From sequence record NC_031928.1: a DNA stretch of 64,000 nt; one strand, 5' to 3'. The DNA comes from Escherichia phage WG01. The position numbers were made by a program, and so were the translations under genes. Numbering within the stretch: the first letter of the stretch is position 1; each line of letters starts with the position of its first letter. Shown here in pieces: positions 7,265 to 41,729 of this stretch. Under the pieces are notes generated by a model, which was given only the letters and a program-made list of their open reading frames with translations, ran no database searches and had not been told where the DNA came from.

Positions 7265-7300
7265 GGACCATTATACTCTGGTCCCAAGAGTTTGTAAACT
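7265..7300 (-). promoter_or_regulatory. T4-type early promoter cassette
   Basis: minus strand GTTTACA, 17 nt, TATAAT; dyad GGACCAGAG/TATAATGGTCC. Confidence 0.6.
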
Positions 7301-15086: not shown

Positions 15087-15428
15087 CTAATAGAAACTTT
15101 TTTCACCGGCTTGACCACTAAACCAAGCGGATTGGGTGTTCTCTTTCCGTTGGTGTTCAATACGAATGCGATATTCATTCCTGATGGCGCAGAGTTCATC
15201 TCGGAAGTCGCCTGCCAACTTTACCTGCTTATGGTCTAGATTTATTAAGGCCTGGGTCTTCGCGGCCAAGAGCAGTCTCTTGTAGTCTCCTTCTTCACAA
15301 TCGGTTTTATAAACTCTATTAGTATATCCATCGATAAGTTCTTTATCATAGTCCTCGACGGACTGTTTCATAGCTTTGGAAAAAGTCTGACCTGCGTTAT
15401 AAAGATTGTAAATAAATTGTTCAAACAT
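15087..15428 (-). CDS. hypothetical protein (113 aa)
   Basis: ATG ORF. Confidence 0.45.
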   Translation of the reverse strand: MFEQFIYNLYNAGQTFSKAMKQSVEDYDKELIDGYTNRVYKTDCEEGDYKRLLLAAKTQALINLDHKQVKLAGDFRDELCAIRNEYRIRIEHQRKENTQSAWFSGQAGEKSFY

Positions 15429-15437
15429 AATTCACCC

Positions 15438-16418
15438 TTATTTCAGAAGTGTAACTTCAGCGATTTCGCTCCAGTCATTTTTATCGGTGGCAATGAAGTC
15501 CGCCAGATAAAGAGCTGTACGTAATGATACGTTACGAAGACGAGATACATTAGCCTTCATCCATGCTAAAGCTTGGTAAGTCTCGGCATCAGTCAGACCA
15601 CGGTTTTGCATCATATCAGTGGACAGGATAACGTCTTCAACACGAACCATAATCTCTTCGTTAGAGTGAACTCCGAGGTCTAAGTAAACTGAACGAGATA
15701 CTAAAGCCTGGAGGTGTGGAGCAAGTTTAGTTCCACGCTCTAATTCACGGTCAATATCAACGTTGGTGATGAACACGATGGTGCCTTCATACTCAAATTC
15801 TTTATCGATATTTTTATCATCAAGATAAGAACTTGAAGTGCTCCAGCACACCTTACGTTTTTCACCAGTATCCAATGCTGCTTTTAACAGGTTCAGGATA
15901 TCCATATCAGAGAATACATCAACATCATCAATAAGAAGAACACTATTAGGGCCGCGGTTATTCCAAAGCTGCTCGTAAAGACCGATTCCACTAATCTTTC
16001 CGTTGATTGATTTATATTCGATAGTTTCATTTTCGTGGGCATTCTGTAATGCTTTATCCAAAGAATATGTTTTACCAATACCTGCGGCACCAGAGATTAT
16101 AAGGGAACGAATTTTACCATCGATGATTCCGTTAGTCATCATGTTCATTACTTTAAAACGTTTGTTGATACGGTGTTTCATTTCTTCAGCGGATTCAGTA
16201 ACCATTGCAGGAGCTGGTGCGCCTTCGGTTTCGATATCACATTTGAATACCCATACACCACGTTCAACACCATCAATCTGTACGAATACCTTGCCATCAC
16301 CGAGGTGAGCTTCGGATTCATGAATTTTGTTAGGGAACCAGGTTTTACCTGAACTCATGAACGTACCAGAGATTTCATTACCGCGATAGATACCTTTGTT
16401 GATTTTGATAGTTAACAT
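15438..16418 (-). CDS. P-loop NTPase (326 aa)
   Basis: ATG at 16418 with GGAGA RBS; Walker A GAAGIGKTYS and Walker B VLLIDDVD; upstream ORF-track codons lie in the promoter. Confidence 0.55.
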   Translation of the reverse strand: MLTIKINKGIYRGNEISGTFMSSGKTWFPNKIHESEAHLGDGKVFVQIDGVERGVWVFKCDIETEGAPAPAMVTESAEEMKHRINKRFKVMNMMTNGIIDGKIRSLIISGAAGIGKTYSLDKALQNAHENETIEYKSINGKISGIGLYEQLWNNRGPNSVLLIDDVDVFSDMDILNLLKAALDTGEKRKVCWSTSSSYLDDKNIDKEFEYEGTIVFITNVDIDRELERGTKLAPHLQALVSRSVYLDLGVHSNEEIMVRVEDVILSTDMMQNRGLTDAETYQALAWMKANVSRLRNVSLRTALYLADFIATDKNDWSEIAEVTLLK

Positions 16419-16444
16419 TATATTCTCCATTTCACTCAGTAGAT

Positions 16445-16485
16445 TTGATAGGTCTATAATAACATGTTTAAAGCAGATGTACACA
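16445..16485 (-). promoter_or_regulatory. promoter cassette variant (GTGTACA -35, TGCTTTA box)
   Basis: same dyad core GATAGGTCTATAATAACATG; -35 reads GTGTACA and a MotA-box-like TGCTTTA overlaps it. Confidence 0.45.
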
Positions 16486-16486
16486 C

Positions 16487-16717
16487 TTATTTTGCAATAA
16501 TTTCACAGAAGCCATCTTTATAGCGGGCCCATGTTTCACCATTTACTGTATAAAGAGCAGCTTTACGGCCATTAGGCATAACAACTTGTTTACCTTTGTT
16601 TTTAGTTACTGCTTCAATAATTTCGTATTCTTCAGCACGATCAGCTTTAAAGGTATCTTCCAGAGCGATCAAGTTAGTAGTGTAAGAACCGTATTTGTAA
16701 TTTTTGATAGCGTACAT
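16487..16717 (-). CDS. hypothetical protein (76 aa)
   Basis: ATG ORF between two identical promoter cassettes. Confidence 0.4.
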   Translation of the reverse strand: MYAIKNYKYGSYTTNLIALEDTFKADRAEEYEIIEAVTKNKGKQVVMPNGRKAALYTVNGETWARYKDGFCEIIAK

Positions 16718-16757
16718 TTTTATATCTCCGTTTGGTTTAAGTTTTCAGCTCTTTAGC

Positions 16758-16796
16758 TGATAGGTCTATAATAACATGTTTAAAGCAGATGTACAC
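16758..16796 (-). promoter_or_regulatory. promoter cassette variant (duplicate of 16445..16485)
   Basis: near-identical ~40-bp copy. Confidence 0.45.
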
Positions 16797-16816
16797 TACT
16801 TTTTTGCACTAAACCC

Positions 16817-16838
16817 AAAAAAGGCCCGAAGGCCTTTT
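16817..16838 (-). terminator. rho-independent terminator (bidirectional shape)
   Basis: GGCC-CGAA-GGCC hairpin flanked by A6 and T4. Confidence 0.55.
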
Positions 16839-16839
16839 A

Positions 16840-17850
16840 TCATTTATAATACGAGTTATGGTTTTCTAGGTAAACCTGCTCAACGAACTTGTCCCAGAAC
16901 TTCATGTCTACCTTCTCAGGCATACCGTTCTTGGCCGCCCAGATGGCATTGGTTTCGACTTCATCAACGATAGCTTCAAGTTCGGCCTGTACATCTTTAA
17001 AAGCATGAAGCCCTTGTTTGATTTCAAGGATAAACGGTGCTGTACGTAAAGGATATTGGAGGTCACCTGTTTGATAGATTTCCTTCAACTGGTATCCAGC
17101 ACGATAAGCGTGGCTCAGAGCTTTCCAGTCAATACCTTCGTTAGCTTCAGCTTTACGAGCACGTTCACCATATTCCGCATCAAGCTTATTCAGGGATTGC
17201 TTGAGCTCTGTAATTGATAACGTTGTTTGGTACTTACGTCCGAGAACAGTATAGAACGTTTGCGGACCTGTTTTCTCATGGTTATGGAATACCCATTCAC
17301 AGAACTCATTTTCAGGGAGTCTGTGTTTGATATCTTCTACCTTAGTACGACGAAGTCTATCAGGGATTCCTTCTTGATAATCGACCCACTGTTCAGGAAT
17401 CTGGTTAACAATAGCCAGTACACCACGCAGTGCAGCTAGTCGAGAACCCTTAACACCATATTTAGAAGCTTGCTTACGGACGTACCCTAAATAGGCTTTC
17501 ATGTTAGTCGTATAGAACCGAGAACGATTGTCTTGGATAAATTTCCATACACCAGGTAAATCAGATTTAACCACCAGTTCAGGTGGAGTGTGGAGCATAT
17601 CCAGAGCAACGGTTTCGCCTTCAGCAGCCAGTTTAAAGAAATATTTCAGACTGTAAAGCTCGTGGTCAACATCATCTTTAGTGTTTTTGGAAGCAGTGTT
17701 ATTCGTATTCAGGTTGGTATGGTTCATAGCCGTACCTAACAGAATATCACGCGGATGTGGAACAAAGATTTCTTTAAAATCAACATCAGATTCTGGAGTA
17801 CTTGTTCCATAAAGGTGGCTACCGAAGTAGCCTTTCATAACTGTTCTCAT
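16840..17850 (-). CDS. hypothetical protein with minimal nucleotidyltransferase-like motif
   Basis: 336 aa; N-terminal GYFGSHLYGTSTPESDVDF fits the pol-beta superfamily pattern hG[GS]x(9-13)Dh[DE]h; remainder predicted helical. Confidence 0.45.
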   Translation of the reverse strand: MRTVMKGYFGSHLYGTSTPESDVDFKEIFVPHPRDILLGTAMNHTNLNTNNTASKNTKDDVDHELYSLKYFFKLAAEGETVALDMLHTPPELVVKSDLPGVWKFIQDNRSRFYTTNMKAYLGYVRKQASKYGVKGSRLAALRGVLAIVNQIPEQWVDYQEGIPDRLRRTKVEDIKHRLPENEFCEWVFHNHEKTGPQTFYTVLGRKYQTTLSITELKQSLNKLDAEYGERARKAEANEGIDWKALSHAYRAGYQLKEIYQTGDLQYPLRTAPFILEIKQGLHAFKDVQAELEAIVDEVETNAIWAAKNGMPEKVDMKFWDKFVEQVYLENHNSYYK

Positions 17851-18299
17851 TCTTTGTCCTCGAAGTGGATTACCGGACAGACCTTAGATTTACGAGCTTT
17901 AATGTATTGAATAACGATGTTTTCTTTAGTTTCTCGGCCTTCACGCTCAGCTTGAATACGTTGCCATTCCTTTTCTTCTCTACGGGCATCATACCATGCG
18001 TGTAAATTCATCGCACCGAATGCCAAACCAATGGATAGCGCAATAATAAGAGCTATTGCAACCAATCCTAAAACAAACCCTAGACTCAACAGAACAGGGG
18101 TACTTAATACAAAGAAATGCTCTAATACACCAACACCTGCAACAGTTAATCCAAAAAGCGTACTACCTGCAACAACAGCACAAGCAAAACAAGCCCAAAC
18201 CATTTTCCAGAAGTAAGCACACAAAGAGTGTGGTCGAGAATGACGGTCATAAAAACGGTCATGAAGTTTAGCGTGCCAAGAGTTTGCATTGATAATCAT
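17847..18299 (-). CDS. membrane protein (150 aa)
   Basis: ATG with AAGGA RBS; three or four hydrophobic helices. Confidence 0.45.
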   Translation of the reverse strand: MIINANSWHAKLHDRFYDRHSRPHSLCAYFWKMVWACFACAVVAGSTLFGLTVAGVGVLEHFFVLSTPVLLSLGFVLGLVAIALIIALSIGLAFGAMNLHAWYDARREEKEWQRIQAEREGRETKENIVIQYIKARKSKVCPVIHFEDKE

Positions 18300-18309
18300 A
18301 ATATTTTCC

Positions 18310-18870
18310 TTAAGAGTTCATAGTTGGGATAACAGAGTTCAGATAAGAGACTAAAACTTTTAGTTCGTCTTTAGTAAATACCACTTCACTTTCACCATCG
18401 TGTCTTTGGGTCAAGGATAACAAATCACGGCCCTGATGTTGATACACGGTTAATTCAGTATCATAATTCAGTTCTTCTTCATCACCTTCAAAGGTTTCAC
18501 TAGAACGAATCACGGCATCTTGGCCAGGGACTTTCCATTCAACTTCCGGCTTGCATTCTTCCTGGAACAGTTTGAAAATACAATCAAAGAATTTATCAGA
18601 ATCGCTGATGCTCAGACATTCAATACCATTTTCCAGATTAAACCCGGTTTCATTTTTATAGATATAGGCAAACATATCATCATTGATATCGATAGGAGCA
18701 CTAGCCCGACCGTTAAGATAATCGTGTCTATCTAAAACCATTAAATCATAAAGCGGTTTAATATCAGCGATAGTCAGTACGATTTTATCGTCTTCTTGTG
18801 AAAGCTCAATTGCGTTATTAACTACTTCAGCGGACAGTTCGCCAAACAATTCAGTTGTTTCAATAATCAT
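18310..18870 (-). CDS. hypothetical highly acidic protein (186 aa)
   Basis: ATG with GAGGA RBS; strong D/E excess. Confidence 0.45.
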   Translation of the reverse strand: MIIETTELFGELSAEVVNNAIELSQEDDKIVLTIADIKPLYDLMVLDRHDYLNGRASAPIDINDDMFAYIYKNETGFNLENGIECLSISDSDKFFDCIFKLFQEECKPEVEWKVPGQDAVIRSSETFEGDEEELNYDTELTVYQHQGRDLLSLTQRHDGESEVVFTKDELKVLVSYLNSVIPTMNS

Positions 18871-25059: not shown

Positions 25060-25317
25060 TTAACGTTCTTCGTGTTTAAAACCTTTCTTAGTAAACAGCT
25101 TAACAACATCTGCTACTTTACGAAGTTGATCTGCATCAGCAACCAGTTGCTTAACCACTTTCTCGTCAGTTTCTTTAGAGCTAAAAGCGTGCTCAAGTTC
25201 GTCATCATTAGGGTCGGCCATAGAAACTTCAGTGCCGGAAGGTTTAACGTTTACAATCATATTCCAACGTTTAGAAACTAAAGTGGATTCTGTAATAAAT
25301 TCTTGGTAAGTTTTCAT
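25060..25317 (-). CDS. internal-protein-like packaged protein (CTS-tagged, 85 aa)
   Basis: N-terminus MKTYQEFITE, the T4 capsid-targeting sequence ending in the prohead-protease motif I/L-x-E. Confidence 0.6.
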   Translation of the reverse strand: MKTYQEFITESTLVSKRWNMIVNVKPSGTEVSMADPNDDELEHAFSSKETDEKVVKQLVADADQLRKVADVVKLFTKKGFKHEER

Positions 25318-25325
25318 ATTAAGCC

Positions 25326-25685
25326 TTAAAGATGGTCTAGTGCCGGGTTATGAGGTTTTTCTGCTTTAGTAGTGTTTTTATGCCAATCTGATTTAGAAAC
25401 ACGGATGGCATCCGCGCCATAAGAACTCTTAAGGAGACCTTTTTTATTGTACACACTTATTGAAGTAAGAGAATCACCATTCCATGTAGCATGAATGAAG
25501 TTAGATTTAGATTTAAGTTCTTTAGCCAAGCTCTGGTTAGTGGCCATGGAAGCAAAGTCTTTACCTGTAACTTTAAAAACTTCAGATGGGTTCAGCCCTT
25601 CTTTGGCCTTAGCCAATTGTTCAGGAGACATAGCTTCGTTAATGCGCTGAGTAGATTCAGTAATAAATTGTTGGTAAGTTTTCAT
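25326..25685 (-). CDS. internal-protein-like packaged protein (CTS-tagged, 119 aa)
   Basis: N-terminus MKTYQQFITE. Confidence 0.6.
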   Translation of the reverse strand: MKTYQQFITESTQRINEAMSPEQLAKAKEGLNPSEVFKVTGKDFASMATNQSLAKELKSKSNFIHATWNGDSLTSISVYNKKGLLKSSYGADAIRVSKSDWHKNTTKAEKPHNPALDHL

Positions 25686-25727
25686 ATTATTCCTTAAGTT
25701 GATAGAAGTATTCTATCACGGATTTAA

Positions 25728-26224: not shown

Positions 26225-26821
26225 TTAATTACCACGGGCAGCATTAGCAACGGCGTAAGCGTACTGAATATTAGCGTCTTTAAACGTACCTTTAGAGGTA
26301 TCTATTTCTGCCTTAAAGCCGCCTTTAGCCATAACATCGGCAAATTCTTTACGGAAAGTCATTGCATCAAGACCTTTCCATGCGGATTTATGCTTGGCAA
26401 ATTCAAGACCGGCGAAGTTGACCGCCTTAGCCAATTTATTATCAATAGTCCATTTACCTGCTTTAGGTACAAATACAGGACCTTTCTGTTTAGAGAACAG
26501 TTTTAAATTCCAGCGACGAAGGTCGCCGTCAGCTTTAACAAAAGCTGCGTCCAAGTTACTAGCAACAACATCTTGGATATGGGCAAATTTAAGTCCATCA
26601 GCTTCAATATTTAGGTCGTTACGCCAGCGAAGTCCTTCCCAGGCGAAAGCTTTAAAATCAGAAGCTTTTGTAGCCAAGTACCGTTCAATAGGAGCTGTTT
26701 TAGCGTCAAAACCGTTTCCTGGGTTGTCAACGCCGTTTCCTTTGTAAGTCCACTCATCTTTATTAATGCCTTGGACCTTTCCTACAGAAGCTTCGGCGAT
26801 AAATTCTTTATACGTTTTCAT
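26225..26821 (-). CDS. ipIII: internal protein III-like (CTS-tagged, 198 aa)
   Basis: N-terminus MKTYKEFIAE; length and position next to e match T4 IPIII. Confidence 0.7.
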   Translation of the reverse strand: MKTYKEFIAEASVGKVQGINKDEWTYKGNGVDNPGNGFDAKTAPIERYLATKASDFKAFAWEGLRWRNDLNIEADGLKFAHIQDVVASNLDAAFVKADGDLRRWNLKLFSKQKGPVFVPKAGKWTIDNKLAKAVNFAGLEFAKHKSAWKGLDAMTFRKEFADVMAKGGFKAEIDTSKGTFKDANIQYAYAVANAARGN

Positions 26822-26867
26822 ACGGGTTCCTTAAAGGAAAATATTTTAATTGGTCTGTTCAAGTAAC

Positions 26868-26903: not shown

Positions 26904-27302
26904 TTATTTATAGGTCTTCATCCAATTCTTGAACAAAGCCGCGACGTCTTTCTCTTTAACGTTCAGTTTAATGTCCAACATTTTACCACCCGCTGCTCTG
27001 GTTTGGCGAATCTTAGCAGTACCGGTTTCGCCATTCCACTCAACATAATACTGTCCAGTGTTCATTGCAATACCATCACCGTAGTCTTCATTTTTAGAAG
27101 TGGTGAATGCTAGCTTCATAGTCTTAGATACACGAGCCTGCATGCCTGTCTGAAGGGCATTACGAACGCGAATAACCTGAGGAGTGGCCTGGGTCAAGTT
27201 CTCATTCAGTTCTTCAGTGAACTCTTCAGATTCAAACATCGCCAAAAGTTCTTTAGATGCAGGAATTACATTCTCTGCGATAAATTCATTATAAGTTTTC
27301 AT
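26904..27302 (-). CDS. internal-protein-like packaged protein (CTS-tagged, 132 aa)
   Basis: N-terminus [10 protein letters not shown]; T4 ipII position. Confidence 0.6.
26905..26912 (-). promoter_or_regulatory. candidate late promoter TATAAATA
   Basis: exact TATAAATA on the minus strand upstream of ipIII, overlapping the upstream stop codon. Confidence 0.4.
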
Positions 27303-27783
27303 ATGCTTTCCAAGTACCTGTTTTAAATGTTGAAATCACGCGCTTAGCACGATTAGGAGTTTGTTTATACCAACGGGATTGAGCCAGGTTAACTGCCGCA
27401 TCGTTCCAACGTTTCTGTTGGAGCATACGTAAAGAGTTAGTGAACCCTGCTACGCCTGCTTCACCCATTTGGAAGACCATGTTAATTAAAGCACAACGAC
27501 GAACTTCGTCCAGTACATCATAAACAGGTTTCAATTTAGGATTACGCAGAATAGCTCTACGAGCATTTTCAACCGATCGGTTAAAGAGTTGTTCAGCTTC
27601 AGCCATAGTAATACGACCATTACAAACTCGACCCATAAGCTTATCAAGTTCAGCACGAGCAACATCTTTAGAAGGGTTCTTAGTAATCAATTGGCCAATG
27701 CCAATAGTCCAATAACCTTCAGTGTCTTTATAAAGATTTAAATCAAGACCTTCGTCTTGACGTAACATATCAAAAATATCCAT
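27289..27783 (-). CDS. e: lysozyme (endolysin) e
   Basis: 164 aa, same length as T4 lysozyme; catalytic Glu11/Asp20/Thr26 context [21 protein letters not shown] conserved. Confidence 0.95.
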
Positions 27784-30015: not shown

Positions 30016-30056
30016 TTGATAGGTCTATAGTATCACACCTATAGACCTTGTACACT
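30016..30056 (-). promoter_or_regulatory. promoter cassette variant (GTGTACA -35)
   Basis: dyad GGTCTATAG/CTATAGACC around TACTATAGACC. Confidence 0.5.
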
Positions 30057-32950: not shown

Positions 32951-33300
32951 GATTTACATTCCTTAATAAAGGTTTCAAGGTCATTACGTTTAGTTTGTTT
33001 TACATACTCATTATAATTAGCCATAGCTAAAGCATATCTCTTTTTACGTGGCTTGTTTATTTTATTAGTTTGGGCAATATCAAAGACCCATGGGATAAAA
33101 AATCCTATTAAAGCCGGAACCCAAATCCACGCGAGGCTCATATCTTCAAACGGATGGCGAGGCATACCATTAATAATCCCACCGACAAGAAATCCAATTA
33201 TCCCTGCAGTCATACTAGTAGCAATGCCGAGGAATAATGAAATAGAGATATCGTAATCTGCTAATGCGTAACCAGGGTCGGTTTTACTAGGCTTATGCAT
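32947..33300 (-). CDS. membrane protein with conserved C-terminal FIKEC tail
   Basis: ATG at 33300; two TM helices; tail ...LETFIKECKS. Confidence 0.4.
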   Translation of the reverse strand: MHKPSKTDPGYALADYDISISLFLGIATSMTAGIIGFLVGGIINGMPRHPFEDMSLAWIWVPALIGFFIPWVFDIAQTNKINKPRKKRYALAMANYNEYVKQTKRNDLETFIKECKS

Positions 33301-35988: not shown

Positions 35989-36453
35989 TTATTTGATTTG
36001 TTTAGCAGACCAGATACGGTCTTTGATGATTTTCTGAATATCTTCAACATACTCTAAGTCGTGAGCATGTGGATTATCTTTGAAGCTATGTGCTCGTGCC
36101 AGTTTCTGGCCTTCTGTTTTGATTACTAAAAGCTCTTTAAGAATTGCTTCATACTTAGAAATAATTCCTTTGGCGATATTTTTTTCTTGAGCGGCTTTAG
36201 GGTCCGCTTTTGACGCAGGTGCTTTACCTGTAGCTTTCTGGAACAATTCACCTGATGCAGCTAGGCTTTTAAAAACTCGGCTAACAGTATTGGCATTAGT
36301 AAAACCTTCGGCTTTAAAATCTTTAATAAAACGGAAACGTTCTTCATCAGAGGCGTCTTTGTAAGAATATTTACCTGCTTGAATTGCTGCAATCGCAGCG
36401 GCTTTTACATCTGAACTAGATTGTTCAGTCAAAAATTCATTGTAAGTTTTCAT
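35989..36453 (-). CDS. internal-protein-like packaged protein (CTS-tagged, 154 aa)
   Basis: N-terminus [10 protein letters not shown]; late promoter ~27 nt upstream. Confidence 0.6.
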   Translation of the reverse strand: MKTYNEFLTEQSSSDVKAAAIAAIQAGKYSYKDASDEERFRFIKDFKAEGFTNANTVSRVFKSLAASGELFQKATGKAPASKADPKAAQEKNIAKGIISKYEAILKELLVIKTEGQKLARAHSFKDNPHAHDLEYVEDIQKIIKDRIWSAKQIK

Positions 36454-36479
36454 ATTATTTCCTAAGTTAGTTTACTACA

Positions 36480-38453: not shown

Positions 38454-38762
38454 CTATTTTATTCCGCGTGATGCAATCGTATTCTGCCGTTTAACGCCAG
38501 TTTGTTTAAAGTTATGATTGTCGAGTTGATCGGTACGAGCAACTCCGAATGATGATTTAATCTTAGCTTTAGATCCTTTAGTTATAGAAATAAACATCTC
38601 GGGAGCCCCTTTCTTAAAGTCCGAAGCAATTACTTCAACACCGTTCTTAGCAAGTGACCTCAGAATTGCTTCCACATACTCATCATCAAGACCTGCTTGA
38701 GTATGAATAACGAATGTCTTTGGTGCAGCCGCTTCATTGATAAATTCTTGGTATGATTTCAT
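38454..38762 (-). CDS. internal-protein-like packaged protein (CTS-tagged, 102 aa)
   Basis: N-terminus MKSYQEFINE. Confidence 0.6.
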   Translation of the reverse strand: MKSYQEFINEAAAPKTFVIHTQAGLDDEYVEAILRSLAKNGVEVIASDFKKGAPEMFISITKGSKAKIKSSFGVARTDQLDNHNFKQTGVKRQNTIASRGIK

Positions 38763-38784
38763 TTTATTTTCCTAATTAATTTTG

Positions 38785-38822: not shown

Positions 38823-39095
38823 TCATTTTAAATAAATTGCATATTTTTTATAACCCGCTGTCTCATGACGAAGACCCTTATCATTAGCAAAACGCTCAAT
38901 GTTGTTAATTTGATTCTGGTCAAGTTCAGAGATGTCAAACACGAAAAAGTTACGTTTGTTGCCTAAAGTTACGTGATTAGTCAAATCGATGTTATAGAGA
39001 TGATTTATATTATCAATCATGGTCTTAACAGATTTGTTAATTTTTACTTCTTCATTAAGAATAGATTCAGCGATAAATTCTTGGTATGATTTCAT
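38823..39095 (-). CDS. internal-protein-like packaged protein (CTS-tagged, 90 aa)
   Basis: N-terminus MKSYQEFIAE. Confidence 0.6.
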   Translation of the reverse strand: MKSYQEFIAESILNEEVKINKSVKTMIDNINHLYNIDLTNHVTLGNKRNFFVFDISELDQNQINNIERFANDKGLRHETAGYKKYAIYLK

Positions 39096-39096
39096 T

Positions 39097-39318
39097 TTAT
39101 TCTACGCCTGCGGCTTTCAAAAGTTTTTTAAGATTGGCTATGCCGCCAGCAGAAAACGTGACCTTGCCACCTTTTTCATTGATAGAGCCAGTCAATTTAG
39201 CAAGCTTATCACTAGGGACTTTTTTAAAATCAGCCAGTATGCCATCAAAGGTTTTTGTAACAACCGGCAGTTGGTCATGTTTTTTGGCTTCTGTAATAAA
39301 TTCTTGATAAGCTTTCAT
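39097..39318 (-). CDS. internal-protein-like packaged protein (CTS-tagged, 73 aa)
   Basis: N-terminus MKAYQEFITE. Confidence 0.6.
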   Translation of the reverse strand: MKAYQEFITEAKKHDQLPVVTKTFDGILADFKKVPSDKLAKLTGSINEKGGKVTFSAGGIANLKKLLKAAGVE

Positions 39319-39345
39319 TTTTGATTTCCGTTTGGTTAGTTTGTT

Positions 39346-39396: not shown

Positions 39397-40295
<899 letters not shown>

Positions 40296-41647: not shown

Positions 41648-41729
41648 AGGGTTCCTATATTGCTTAAGTCCCAGACAGTGTATAATGGTCCTAGGTCTGT
41701 TCCATTCAATAACTGGCTGGGATAATAGA

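Follow-up and report, generated by a model that had tools for sequence, protein, structure and literature searches.

Paired early-type promoter cassettes in Escherichia phage WG01 share a MotA-box-like spacer with the motA promoter

The stretch of DNA considered in this study, 64,000 nt of the genome of Escherichia phage WG01 (NC_031928.1), will be called the window, and all positions refer to it unless another locus is named. Between the genes nrdC.11 and nrdC.10 it contains two identical copies of a promoter-like sequence, which bracket an open reading frame (ORF) of 76 amino acids, ORF76. The two copies are probably early (sigma-70) promoter cassettes of a subclass otherwise typical of motA, the gene encoding the activator of middle promoters; they border a slot subject to recombination, and the box TGCTTTA in their spacers is plausibly an operator for MotA.

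The repeat is exact over 39 nt (TGATAGGTCTATAATAACATGTTTAAAGCAGATGTACAC; positions 16446-16484 and 16758-16796, offset by 312 nt) and continues upstream of the -35 element as a degenerate extension of about 13 nt. That a 39-mer should recur by chance within 64 kb is essentially impossible. On the minus strand, which is the coding strand here, both copies read GTGTAC-ATC-TGCTTTA-AACATGT-TATTAT-AGACCTATCA, with a spacer of 17 nt between GTGTAC and TATTAT (TCTGCTTTAAACATG) that includes TGCTTTA. A consensus scan scored both as sigma-70-like, with TG ahead of the -10 element (TGT-TATTAT). GTGTAC matches the early-promoter -35, GTTTAC, at five of six positions, the change being T-to-G at the third base. 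A-rich stretches resembling UP elements (GCAAAAAAGTA and GCAAAATAAGT) abut the -35s of the two copies on their upstream sides, and GGAG with an ATG is found 39-51 nt 3' of each -10. Both copies therefore display the marks of an early promoter: the -35, spacer and TGn -10, the A-rich upstream region, and orientation 5' of an ORF that bears a Shine-Dalgarno sequence. Their geometry is that of the GTTTAC-17-TACTAT subset among the cassettes of the window. All 17 cassettes of the family sit 5' of minus-strand genes, and TGCTT occurs in the spacer of two of them, i.e. only in this pair.

A first-pass annotation of the same DNA had described near-identical copies of about 40 bp, with a -35 reading GTGTACA and TGCTTTA on the minus strand, on either side of a single gene of 76 amino acids. 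All of this was confirmed. It had also pointed to other copies with TGTACA, and these do exist in the cassettes with -35s starting at 30055 (GTGTACA) and 31343 (ATGTACA), but their spacers are unrelated and lack TGCTTTA. The implied linkage of TGTACA with TGCTTTA fails: the two features are independent, since motA promoters combine the box with the canonical GTTTAC. On the plus strand, the scan scores an antisense promoter-like site at 16431-16460 (10 of 12 positions, TATAAT with TTCACT 18 nt upstream), whose perfect TATAAT results from the A that comes after the variant -10, TATTAT. A late-promoter or antisense reading was rejected: there is no TATAAATA, the plus-strand site is weak, and the distal copy has no matching -35.

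The kinship of the pair with motA emerged from a blastn comparison of the 55-nt cassette with about 400 T4-type genomes. Outside nrdC.10, the best matches were to the promoter immediately 5' of motA; Tequatrovirus ACG-C40 and the Dhakaviruses KIT01 and JS98 show 91-93% identity to the cassette there, over 54 nt. In these three phages the motA promoter reads GTTTAC-(A/T)TC-TGCTTTA-AACATGA-TACTAT-AGACCTATCAAATAAATG, followed by GGAG and ATG. Judged by its sequence, the pair is a member of a subclass defined by the spacer TCTGCTTTAAACATG, the hallmark of the motA promoter in Dhakavirus and many Tequatroviruses. I surveyed 33 motA loci from IMG/VR, comprising 26 distinct upstream sequences from several T4-like lineages. 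In 18 of the 26, [T/C/A]GC[T/A]T[T/C]A lies exactly 3 nt after GTTTAC, and the MotA proteins of the box-bearing loci are 50-98% identical to that of T4. The three bases 5' of the box and those 3' of AAC vary while the box is kept, and its position is fixed at +3 to the -35, with 7 or 8 nt to the -10. The box is also present at nrdC.10 in JS98, IME341, EcS1, PEi20, CBH8 and one other IMG/VR phage (L059), and 5' of ORF76 homologues in EcS1, PEi20 and CC31/CkP1. Among the other distinct promoter-like sites in the fetched loci it occurs in 7 of 44, three of the seven at ORF76 homologues and three adjoining motA or nrdC.10.

The motA promoter of T4 (L016, 3190-3110, minus strand) is identical to the promoter of a 75-amino-acid ORF that lies 5' of the TGCTTTA-type motA promoter in Tequatroviruses of the ACG-C40 type (ACG-C40: L013, 1140-1580). 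By this comparison T4 looks like a cassette-deletion product that lost the box-type motA promoter, which may be why the element is absent from T4 lore. The motA and nrdC.10 promoters of T4 are near-identical outside the spacer. In JS98, a sigma-70-like site, GTGTAC-18-TATAAT, is found just 5' of asiA, inside the end of orf247 (L012, 5600-5515, minus strand); this promoter, again with a -35 of the TGTACA type, has no box, and the idea of a joint motA/asiA box regulon was set aside.

Early promoters of T4 have GTTTAC at -36 to -31, TGn, TAtAAT, and an A-rich UP region (Nolan et al. 2006, PMC1524935; Hinton 2010, PMC2988021). At T4 middle promoters the MotA box, with the consensus (a/t)(a/t)(a/t)TGCTTtA (PMC2988021), replaces the -35: it is centred at -30, with GCTT at -30 to -27, and lies 12±1 bp from the -10 (PMC2988021, PMC1524935). 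The 12±1-nt spacing holds across 58 T4 middle promoters, and TGn is found in half of middle promoters (PMC2988021). The resemblance of TGCTTTA to this box, remarked on in the first-pass annotation, is genuine. On the coding strand and in the orientation of a MotA box, TCTGCTTTA (16789-16781 and 16477-16469) fits the consensus at 8 of 9 positions. The likeness is probably meaningful, too, because the motA promoters of many T4-type phages carry the same element at the same offset.

It had been proposed on this basis that the copies may be middle rather than early promoters, a proposal that did not survive closer comparison. That they are middle promoters dependent on MotA and AsiA, or early/middle hybrids activated by MotA through TGCTTTA, seems to me very improbable, even though the match to the box is good and correctly oriented, the -10 (TGT-TATTAT) fits the TAnnnT with TGn of middle promoters, the -35 is weakened to GTGTAC, and the genus encodes both proteins (JS98 has motA and asiA; both genes fall outside the WG01 window). 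The distance from TGCTTTA to the -10 is 7 nt in both copies, as opposed to 12±1, so that GCTT, expected at -30 to -27, falls at about -25 to -22. The -35 hexamer and the A-rich region are kept at their early-promoter positions, whereas in middle promoters the box replaces the -35, so that two defining features of a middle promoter, the position of the box and the replacement of the -35, are lacking. Nor does another -10 bring TGCTTTA into the activating register: a search of both copies for an alternative TAnnnT 11-13 nt 3' of the box returned none, and this possibility is ruled out. Across the motA promoters it is the -35 to which the box is tied, at a constant +3, its distance from the -10 being 7 or 8 nt. 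The same architecture drives motA, whose product is needed before MotA exists and is documented as early (PMC2988021), and the architecture is for that reason best taken as early. The window also has candidate MotA sites at the canonical spacing (11-12 nt) on its minus strand, where the boxes start at 33034, 37469, 1261 and 4800. A further candidate for a MotA-type middle promoter lies on the plus strand at 41661. The candidates in the window consist of TGCTT[T/A]A, 11-13 nt, and then TATAAT, TATTAT or TAAAAT, some with TGn.

From anatomy and homology, then, I infer that both copies are early promoters, not middle promoters activated by MotA. They share with T4 early promoters the positions and identities of the A-tract, the -35 and the TG-extended -10, as well as a site directly 5' of a Shine-Dalgarno sequence and ATG, and they share homology with the promoter that drives the early gene motA. 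They differ in the -35 GTGTAC, which recurs across several genera as a variant of the nrdC.10 promoter, and in the conserved MotA-box-like heptamer held by the spacer. What they have in common with MotA/AsiA middle promoters (sigma appropriation) is TGCTTTA (TGCTTCA in relatives), in the same orientation and 5' of TAnnnT, along with a phage group that has genes for MotA and AsiA. Their box, however, lies 5 bp nearer the -10 (7-8 as against 12±1 nt), coexists with a -35 to which it is anchored, and occurs in front of motA itself.

The second component of the finding concerns the slot between the copies. Promoter-early stem-loop (PeSL) cassettes have been described in T4-type phages (Arbiol et al. 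2010, PMC2839356; Comeau et al. 2014, PMC4122927), and the distal copy has the same composition: a stem-loop terminator, an AT-rich region, a sigma-70-like early promoter, a Shine-Dalgarno sequence and a start codon. Also as in PeSL, the region is hyperplastic, with tandem copies flanking a small ORF that some relatives have, others lack and others replace, and with junctions inside the cassette. The resemblance is incomplete in that a stem-loop is missing from the proximal copy, the pair forms a subclass sharing its spacer with the motA promoter, and most other cassettes of the window place an inverted repeat across the -10, not only 5' of the promoter. In the literature searched I found no earlier description of PeSL in the JS98 group.

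Relatives of WG01 exhibit several states of the slot. IME08 lacks ORF76 and one of the promoter copies, and the megablast coverage of KIT01, MX01 and Bp7 (about 91%, in two pieces) suggests that they share the IME08-type deletion. IME341 has a different, unrelated ORF of 84 amino acids in the slot. IME281 and IME08 have one promoter only, an exact hybrid of two others: the left part, through GTAGAGCATG, equals the -35 and spacer of the upstream promoter of IME341, and the right part, from TTATTAT through the leader, equals the -10 and leader of the nrdC.10 promoter. Such a junction is that expected from recombination between flanking cassettes, according to the PeSL model. Variable sets of ORFs occupy the slot in EcS1, CC31 and 92A1. 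The states of IME08, IME341 and IME281 mark the locus as a hot spot of insertion and deletion at which promoter cassettes recombine, in support of this part of the first-pass reading. A second identical pair, of 41 nt and likewise of the box type, surrounds the 71-amino-acid orf253 directly 5' of motA in JS98 (L012, 8294-7905, minus strand), while KIT01 (L014, 1480-1580) has a single box-type promoter and no orf253; as far as the sequences tell, the motA-locus pair is the same pattern of insertion and deletion as the ORF76 pair. All of these patterns fall within the published PeSL model (PMC2839356, PMC4122927). In the mechanism that I propose, the distal copy would make a complete terminator-promoter (PeSL-like) unit together with the terminator hairpin of nrdC.11 and would drive ORF76, the proximal copy would drive nrdC.10, and homologous recombination between cassettes would delete, insert or swap small ORFs in the hyperplastic slot. 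The pair is a new example of PeSL gene shuffling, one for which the states of presence, absence, replacement and hybrid junction are all found among sequenced relatives.

The history of ORF76 bears on how the copies came to be identical. ORF76 is 100% identical at the amino acid level in seven distinct phages (nine records) and is present in only part of the genus. Homologues with 39-54% identity occupy the same nrdC.11-nrdC.10 slot in EcS1, PEi20, CC31, CkP1, 92A1 and WSPA. By group, the slot holds such homologues in Kagamiyamavirus, Kanagawavirus, Karamvirus and Serratia phages, with box-type promoters in the first three. The conserved core of the family is VTxxKGxxVxMPNGxKAxLFxVGxEVWAxYxDG. 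As to function, ORF76 has no Pfam match, its PHROG (33156) is uninformative, and a search of a large protein word index returned ORF76 only; a single-sequence AlphaFold model is of low confidence (pLDDT 49.7). The two flanking promoters of EcS1 have variants specific to that phage in common (TGCTTCA and an AGCTRCATCG leader); in PEi20 the two flanking promoters differ and are not homogenised. Beyond CCTATCA, the WG01 leaders resemble those of the matching genes in other phages, of ORF76 in PEi20, 92A1 and WSPA and of nrdC.10 in IME08 and IME281. This pattern of promoters versus leaders indicates the probable homogenisation of a tract of 40-55 nt (a conversion tract).

The first-pass annotation took the pair to suggest a recent duplication or insertion. 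This has not been established, because homologues of ORF76 fill the same slot in other genera, and the identity of the copies fits conversion or integration equally. The 39-nt identity is more likely to reflect gene conversion between tandem copies, or the integration of a circle comprising ORF and promoter into a like promoter. It is improbable that the pair arose very recently, by the entry of a module of ORF76 plus promoter into a single promoter like that of IME08, instead of being an old arrangement maintained by conversion. Such an insertion would suit the perfect identity of the protein in all of the phages that have it, the many Dhakaviruses without ORF76 and the 100% identity of the copies over 39 nt, and integration of a PeSL mini-circle would yield a flanking repeat of this kind. 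A single crossover into a promoter of the IME08 type (spacer CCCTCGTAGAG), however, would leave one hybrid copy with that spacer, and none is seen. Furthermore, the IME08/IME281 promoter is itself a deletion hybrid from a two-promoter state like that of IME341, EcS1 and PEi20 have ORF76 homologues in the slot with box-type promoters on both sides, and the leaders of both copies have their counterparts in other phages. In ABTNLsp5 (L098) and EcWhh-1 (L099), ORF76 is kept and the proximal promoter has CATTTCA in place of TGCTTTA, four substitutions within seven bases, the rest of the cassette being identical. The patch suggests either a short conversion tract or selection against the box at nrdC.10.

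There remains the function of the box. The spacer between -35 and -10 is the classic position of an operator for steric repression. An operator is also the simplest reading of TGCTTTA, because a motif recognised by MotA is conserved in motA's own spacer, anchored to the -35 at a site where its occupant would clash with polymerase. Most motA promoters conserve the box at +3 from the -35, a position off the register required for activation. I regard it as a real possibility, somewhat short of an even chance, that TGCTTTA is a low-affinity MotA operator that gives negative feedback, and not an activating site. As MotA accumulated, it would occupy the putative box in the spacer and exert negative feedback on the promoter; alone or with AsiA-modified polymerase, it would shut its own early promoter and those of a small early set (nrdC.10 and ORF76). 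The broader idea, that MotA serves as both repressor and activator and that a spacer box 5 bp off the activating register marks the operators, I consider doubtful. It is known that motA mutants over-express several early genes and that MotA is made in a short burst (PMC2988021), and the shut-off of early promoters is incompletely understood (PMC3014915). Feedback through an operator would fit both the short burst and the over-expression in motA mutants. The arrangement would resemble that of autoregulated activators with a spacer operator, a principle general to bacteria and phages, in having a motif for its own product between the -35 and -10 of its promoter. It would differ from them in that MotA is a weak, monomeric DNA binder and in that its role as repressor is here putative, read from sequence; I found no report of MotA as a direct repressor in the literature searched.

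Several observations weigh against this picture. MotA alone binds DNA weakly (PMC2988021). The box is dispensable at nrdC.10, where EcWhh-1 and ABTNLsp5 have CATTTCA and IME08 has an unrelated spacer, and it is missing at motA in several lineages (e.g., survey loci L025/26/28, L034 and L046). The spacer of the T4 motA promoter, AACCAAAGCATACTGTGG, has only an inverted AAAGCA. Spread of the cassette by recombination rather than selection could be a partial source of the conservation of the spacer. As to the promoters themselves, GTGTAC is a weaker -35 (TGTACA agrees with TTGACA at four of six positions), their early timing in WG01 is deduced from anatomy and from likeness to the motA promoter, and the proximal copy, without a stem-loop of its own, is only half a PeSL. 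Finally, a literature search that did not cover Uzan et al. (1990) produced no description of a MotA operator or of motA autoregulation.

Two other accounts of the spacer have to be weighed against an operator. It is a serious possibility, if hardly a favoured one, that TGCTTTA is a functionless passenger of one cassette lineage that spread across motA, nrdC.10 and ORF76 and stayed similar through recombination of cassettes and gene conversion, its likeness to the MotA box being coincidental. Mosaicism of the cassettes is rampant, as the hybrid promoters and swapped leaders attest; the box has been lost at nrdC.10 in close relatives that still have the gene; conservation at nrdC.10 extends beyond the box to the whole ATC..AACATGTTATTAT frame; and some lineages do without the box at motA. 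A mere passenger, however, would not be expected to persist across MotA proteins about 50-69% identical while flanking spacer bases vary, nor to show its T/C alternation at the t/c position of the MotA consensus. Moreover, the motif kept 5' of motA is the very one that MotA recognises, the chance for an arbitrary 7-mer being about 1 in 10^3 to 10^4 per spacer, and most other cassettes in the window have unrelated spacers. It is highly doubtful that the spacer is recognised instead by a factor other than MotA (another DNA-binding protein, of phage or host, or a function in recombination or homing aimed at the cassettes) or acts in read-through RNA. One might point to the cassette-specific recombination helper raised by the authors of PeSL, to the palindromes TTTAAA and AACATGT-T within the spacer, and to the genes for mobD-type homing endonucleases nearby in T4; in most other cassettes the spacer can pair with sequence farther downstream in a hairpin, making information at the level of RNA possible. 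But no inverted repeat of at least 6 nt joins the spacer of the pair to its leaders, no candidate factor is known, and MotA better accounts for the exact match to the core of its box and for the presence of that match at motA.

Whatever its function, a MotA-box heptamer occupies a fixed, non-activating site in the motA promoter across much of the T4 group, and copies of this type of promoter stand before other genes as well. Should the heptamer prove to be a MotA operator, a classic model system would gain a feedback loop and a testable contribution to early-promoter shut-off. Repression through the spacer box would explain the short burst of MotA and part of that shut-off. Genes landing behind the cassette would then join the feedback automatically, because the cassette is also a substrate for recombination.

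The interval between the two nrdC genes is arranged as follows; every feature lies on the minus strand. Upstream of the pair, nrdC.11 (16840-17850) encodes a nucleotidyltransferase, as judged from the ORF list, PHROG 388, Pfam RlaP and the JS98 annotation. A terminator scan and the sequence itself identify a terminator-like stem-loop, AAAAGGCC-TTCG-GGCCTTTT with a T-run (16819-16838), as the stem-loop part of the distal cassette; this hairpin is paralogous to the one 5' of the motA-locus cassette in JS98 and KIT01. Next comes the A-rich UP-like region of the distal copy, TTGGGTTTAGTGCAAAAAAGTA (16797-16818, from sequence), from which GGGTTTAGTGCAAAAAGT also precedes the motA-locus promoter in KIT01 and JS98. 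The distal copy, the predicted ORF76 promoter (16758-16796), was recognised, like the proximal one, by consensus scan, repeat search and sequence. It has its -35 at 16796-16791, TGCTTTA at 16787-16781, the -10 at 16773-16768 (TGT-TATTAT at 16776-16768) and a predicted start near 16761. The ORF76 leader (16718-16757, from sequence; GGAG at 16729-16726) resembles the leaders of ORF76 homologues in PEi20, 92A1 and WSPA. ORF76 itself (16487-16717; ORF list and PHROG 33156) is a conserved hypothetical protein of 76 amino acids, whose Shine-Dalgarno GGAG stands 8 nt ahead of the ATG and whose stop codon (16489-16487) falls in the A-rich region upstream of the proximal copy. That copy, the predicted nrdC.10 promoter (16446-16484), has its -35 at 16484-16479, TGCTTTA at 16475-16469 and the -10 at 16461-16456 (TGT-TATTAT at 16464-16456). 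The nrdC.10 leader (16419-16445, from sequence comparison; GGAG at 16428-16425) is identical to that behind the single promoter of IME08 and IME281. The gene downstream, nrdC.10 (15438-16418; ORF list, PHROG/Pfam and JS98 annotation), encodes a P-loop NTPase-like protein of 326 amino acids. WG01 is a JS98-like Dhakavirus: in a megablast of positions 15400-18400, Shigella phage PSD9 matches at 99.6% identity, and about 95% is reached by JS98, JS10 and further members of Dhakavirus (Tevenvirinae).

The remaining cassettes of the window have a peculiarity of their own. In 10 of the 17 early-promoter cassettes, a perfect inverted repeat of 6-12 nt connects the -35/-10 spacer to downstream sequence (minus strand, with -35s starting at 7299, 8426, 15084, 23599, 26200, 30055, 34544, 35001, 38442 and 39385). 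The partner is either the Shine-Dalgarno region (e.g., ATCTCCTGTAG...CTACAGGAGAT) or the -10 and discriminator (e.g., AGGTCTATAG...CTATAGACCT), and the -10 hexamer accordingly sits in the loop. Shuffling of the sequences gave p <=0.02 for nine of the cassettes and 0.07 for the one at 7299. The same pattern of spacer hairpins is seen in CC31 and Serratia phage 92A1, and it departs from the layout published for PeSL, in which the stem-loop is 5' of the promoter. A spacer hairpin could fold only in RNA that reads through from promoters farther upstream. Such hairpins recall the control of T4 e, soc and gene 49. A hairpin of spacer with leader was rejected for the pair itself, since neither copy has an inverted repeat of that minimum length.

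Another repeat family, with 8-9 copies, covers the 5' ends of minus-strand genes (25282-25329, 25650-25697, 26786-26833, 27274-27311, 36418-36465, 38727-38774, 39060-39107, 39283-39330 and 39571-39618). The genes concerned start ATGAAA(A/T)C(T/A)TACCAAGAATTTAT..., giving N-termini like MKTYQEFI..., and these shared beginnings suggest small early genes related by paralogy, several of which stand immediately after promoter cassettes.

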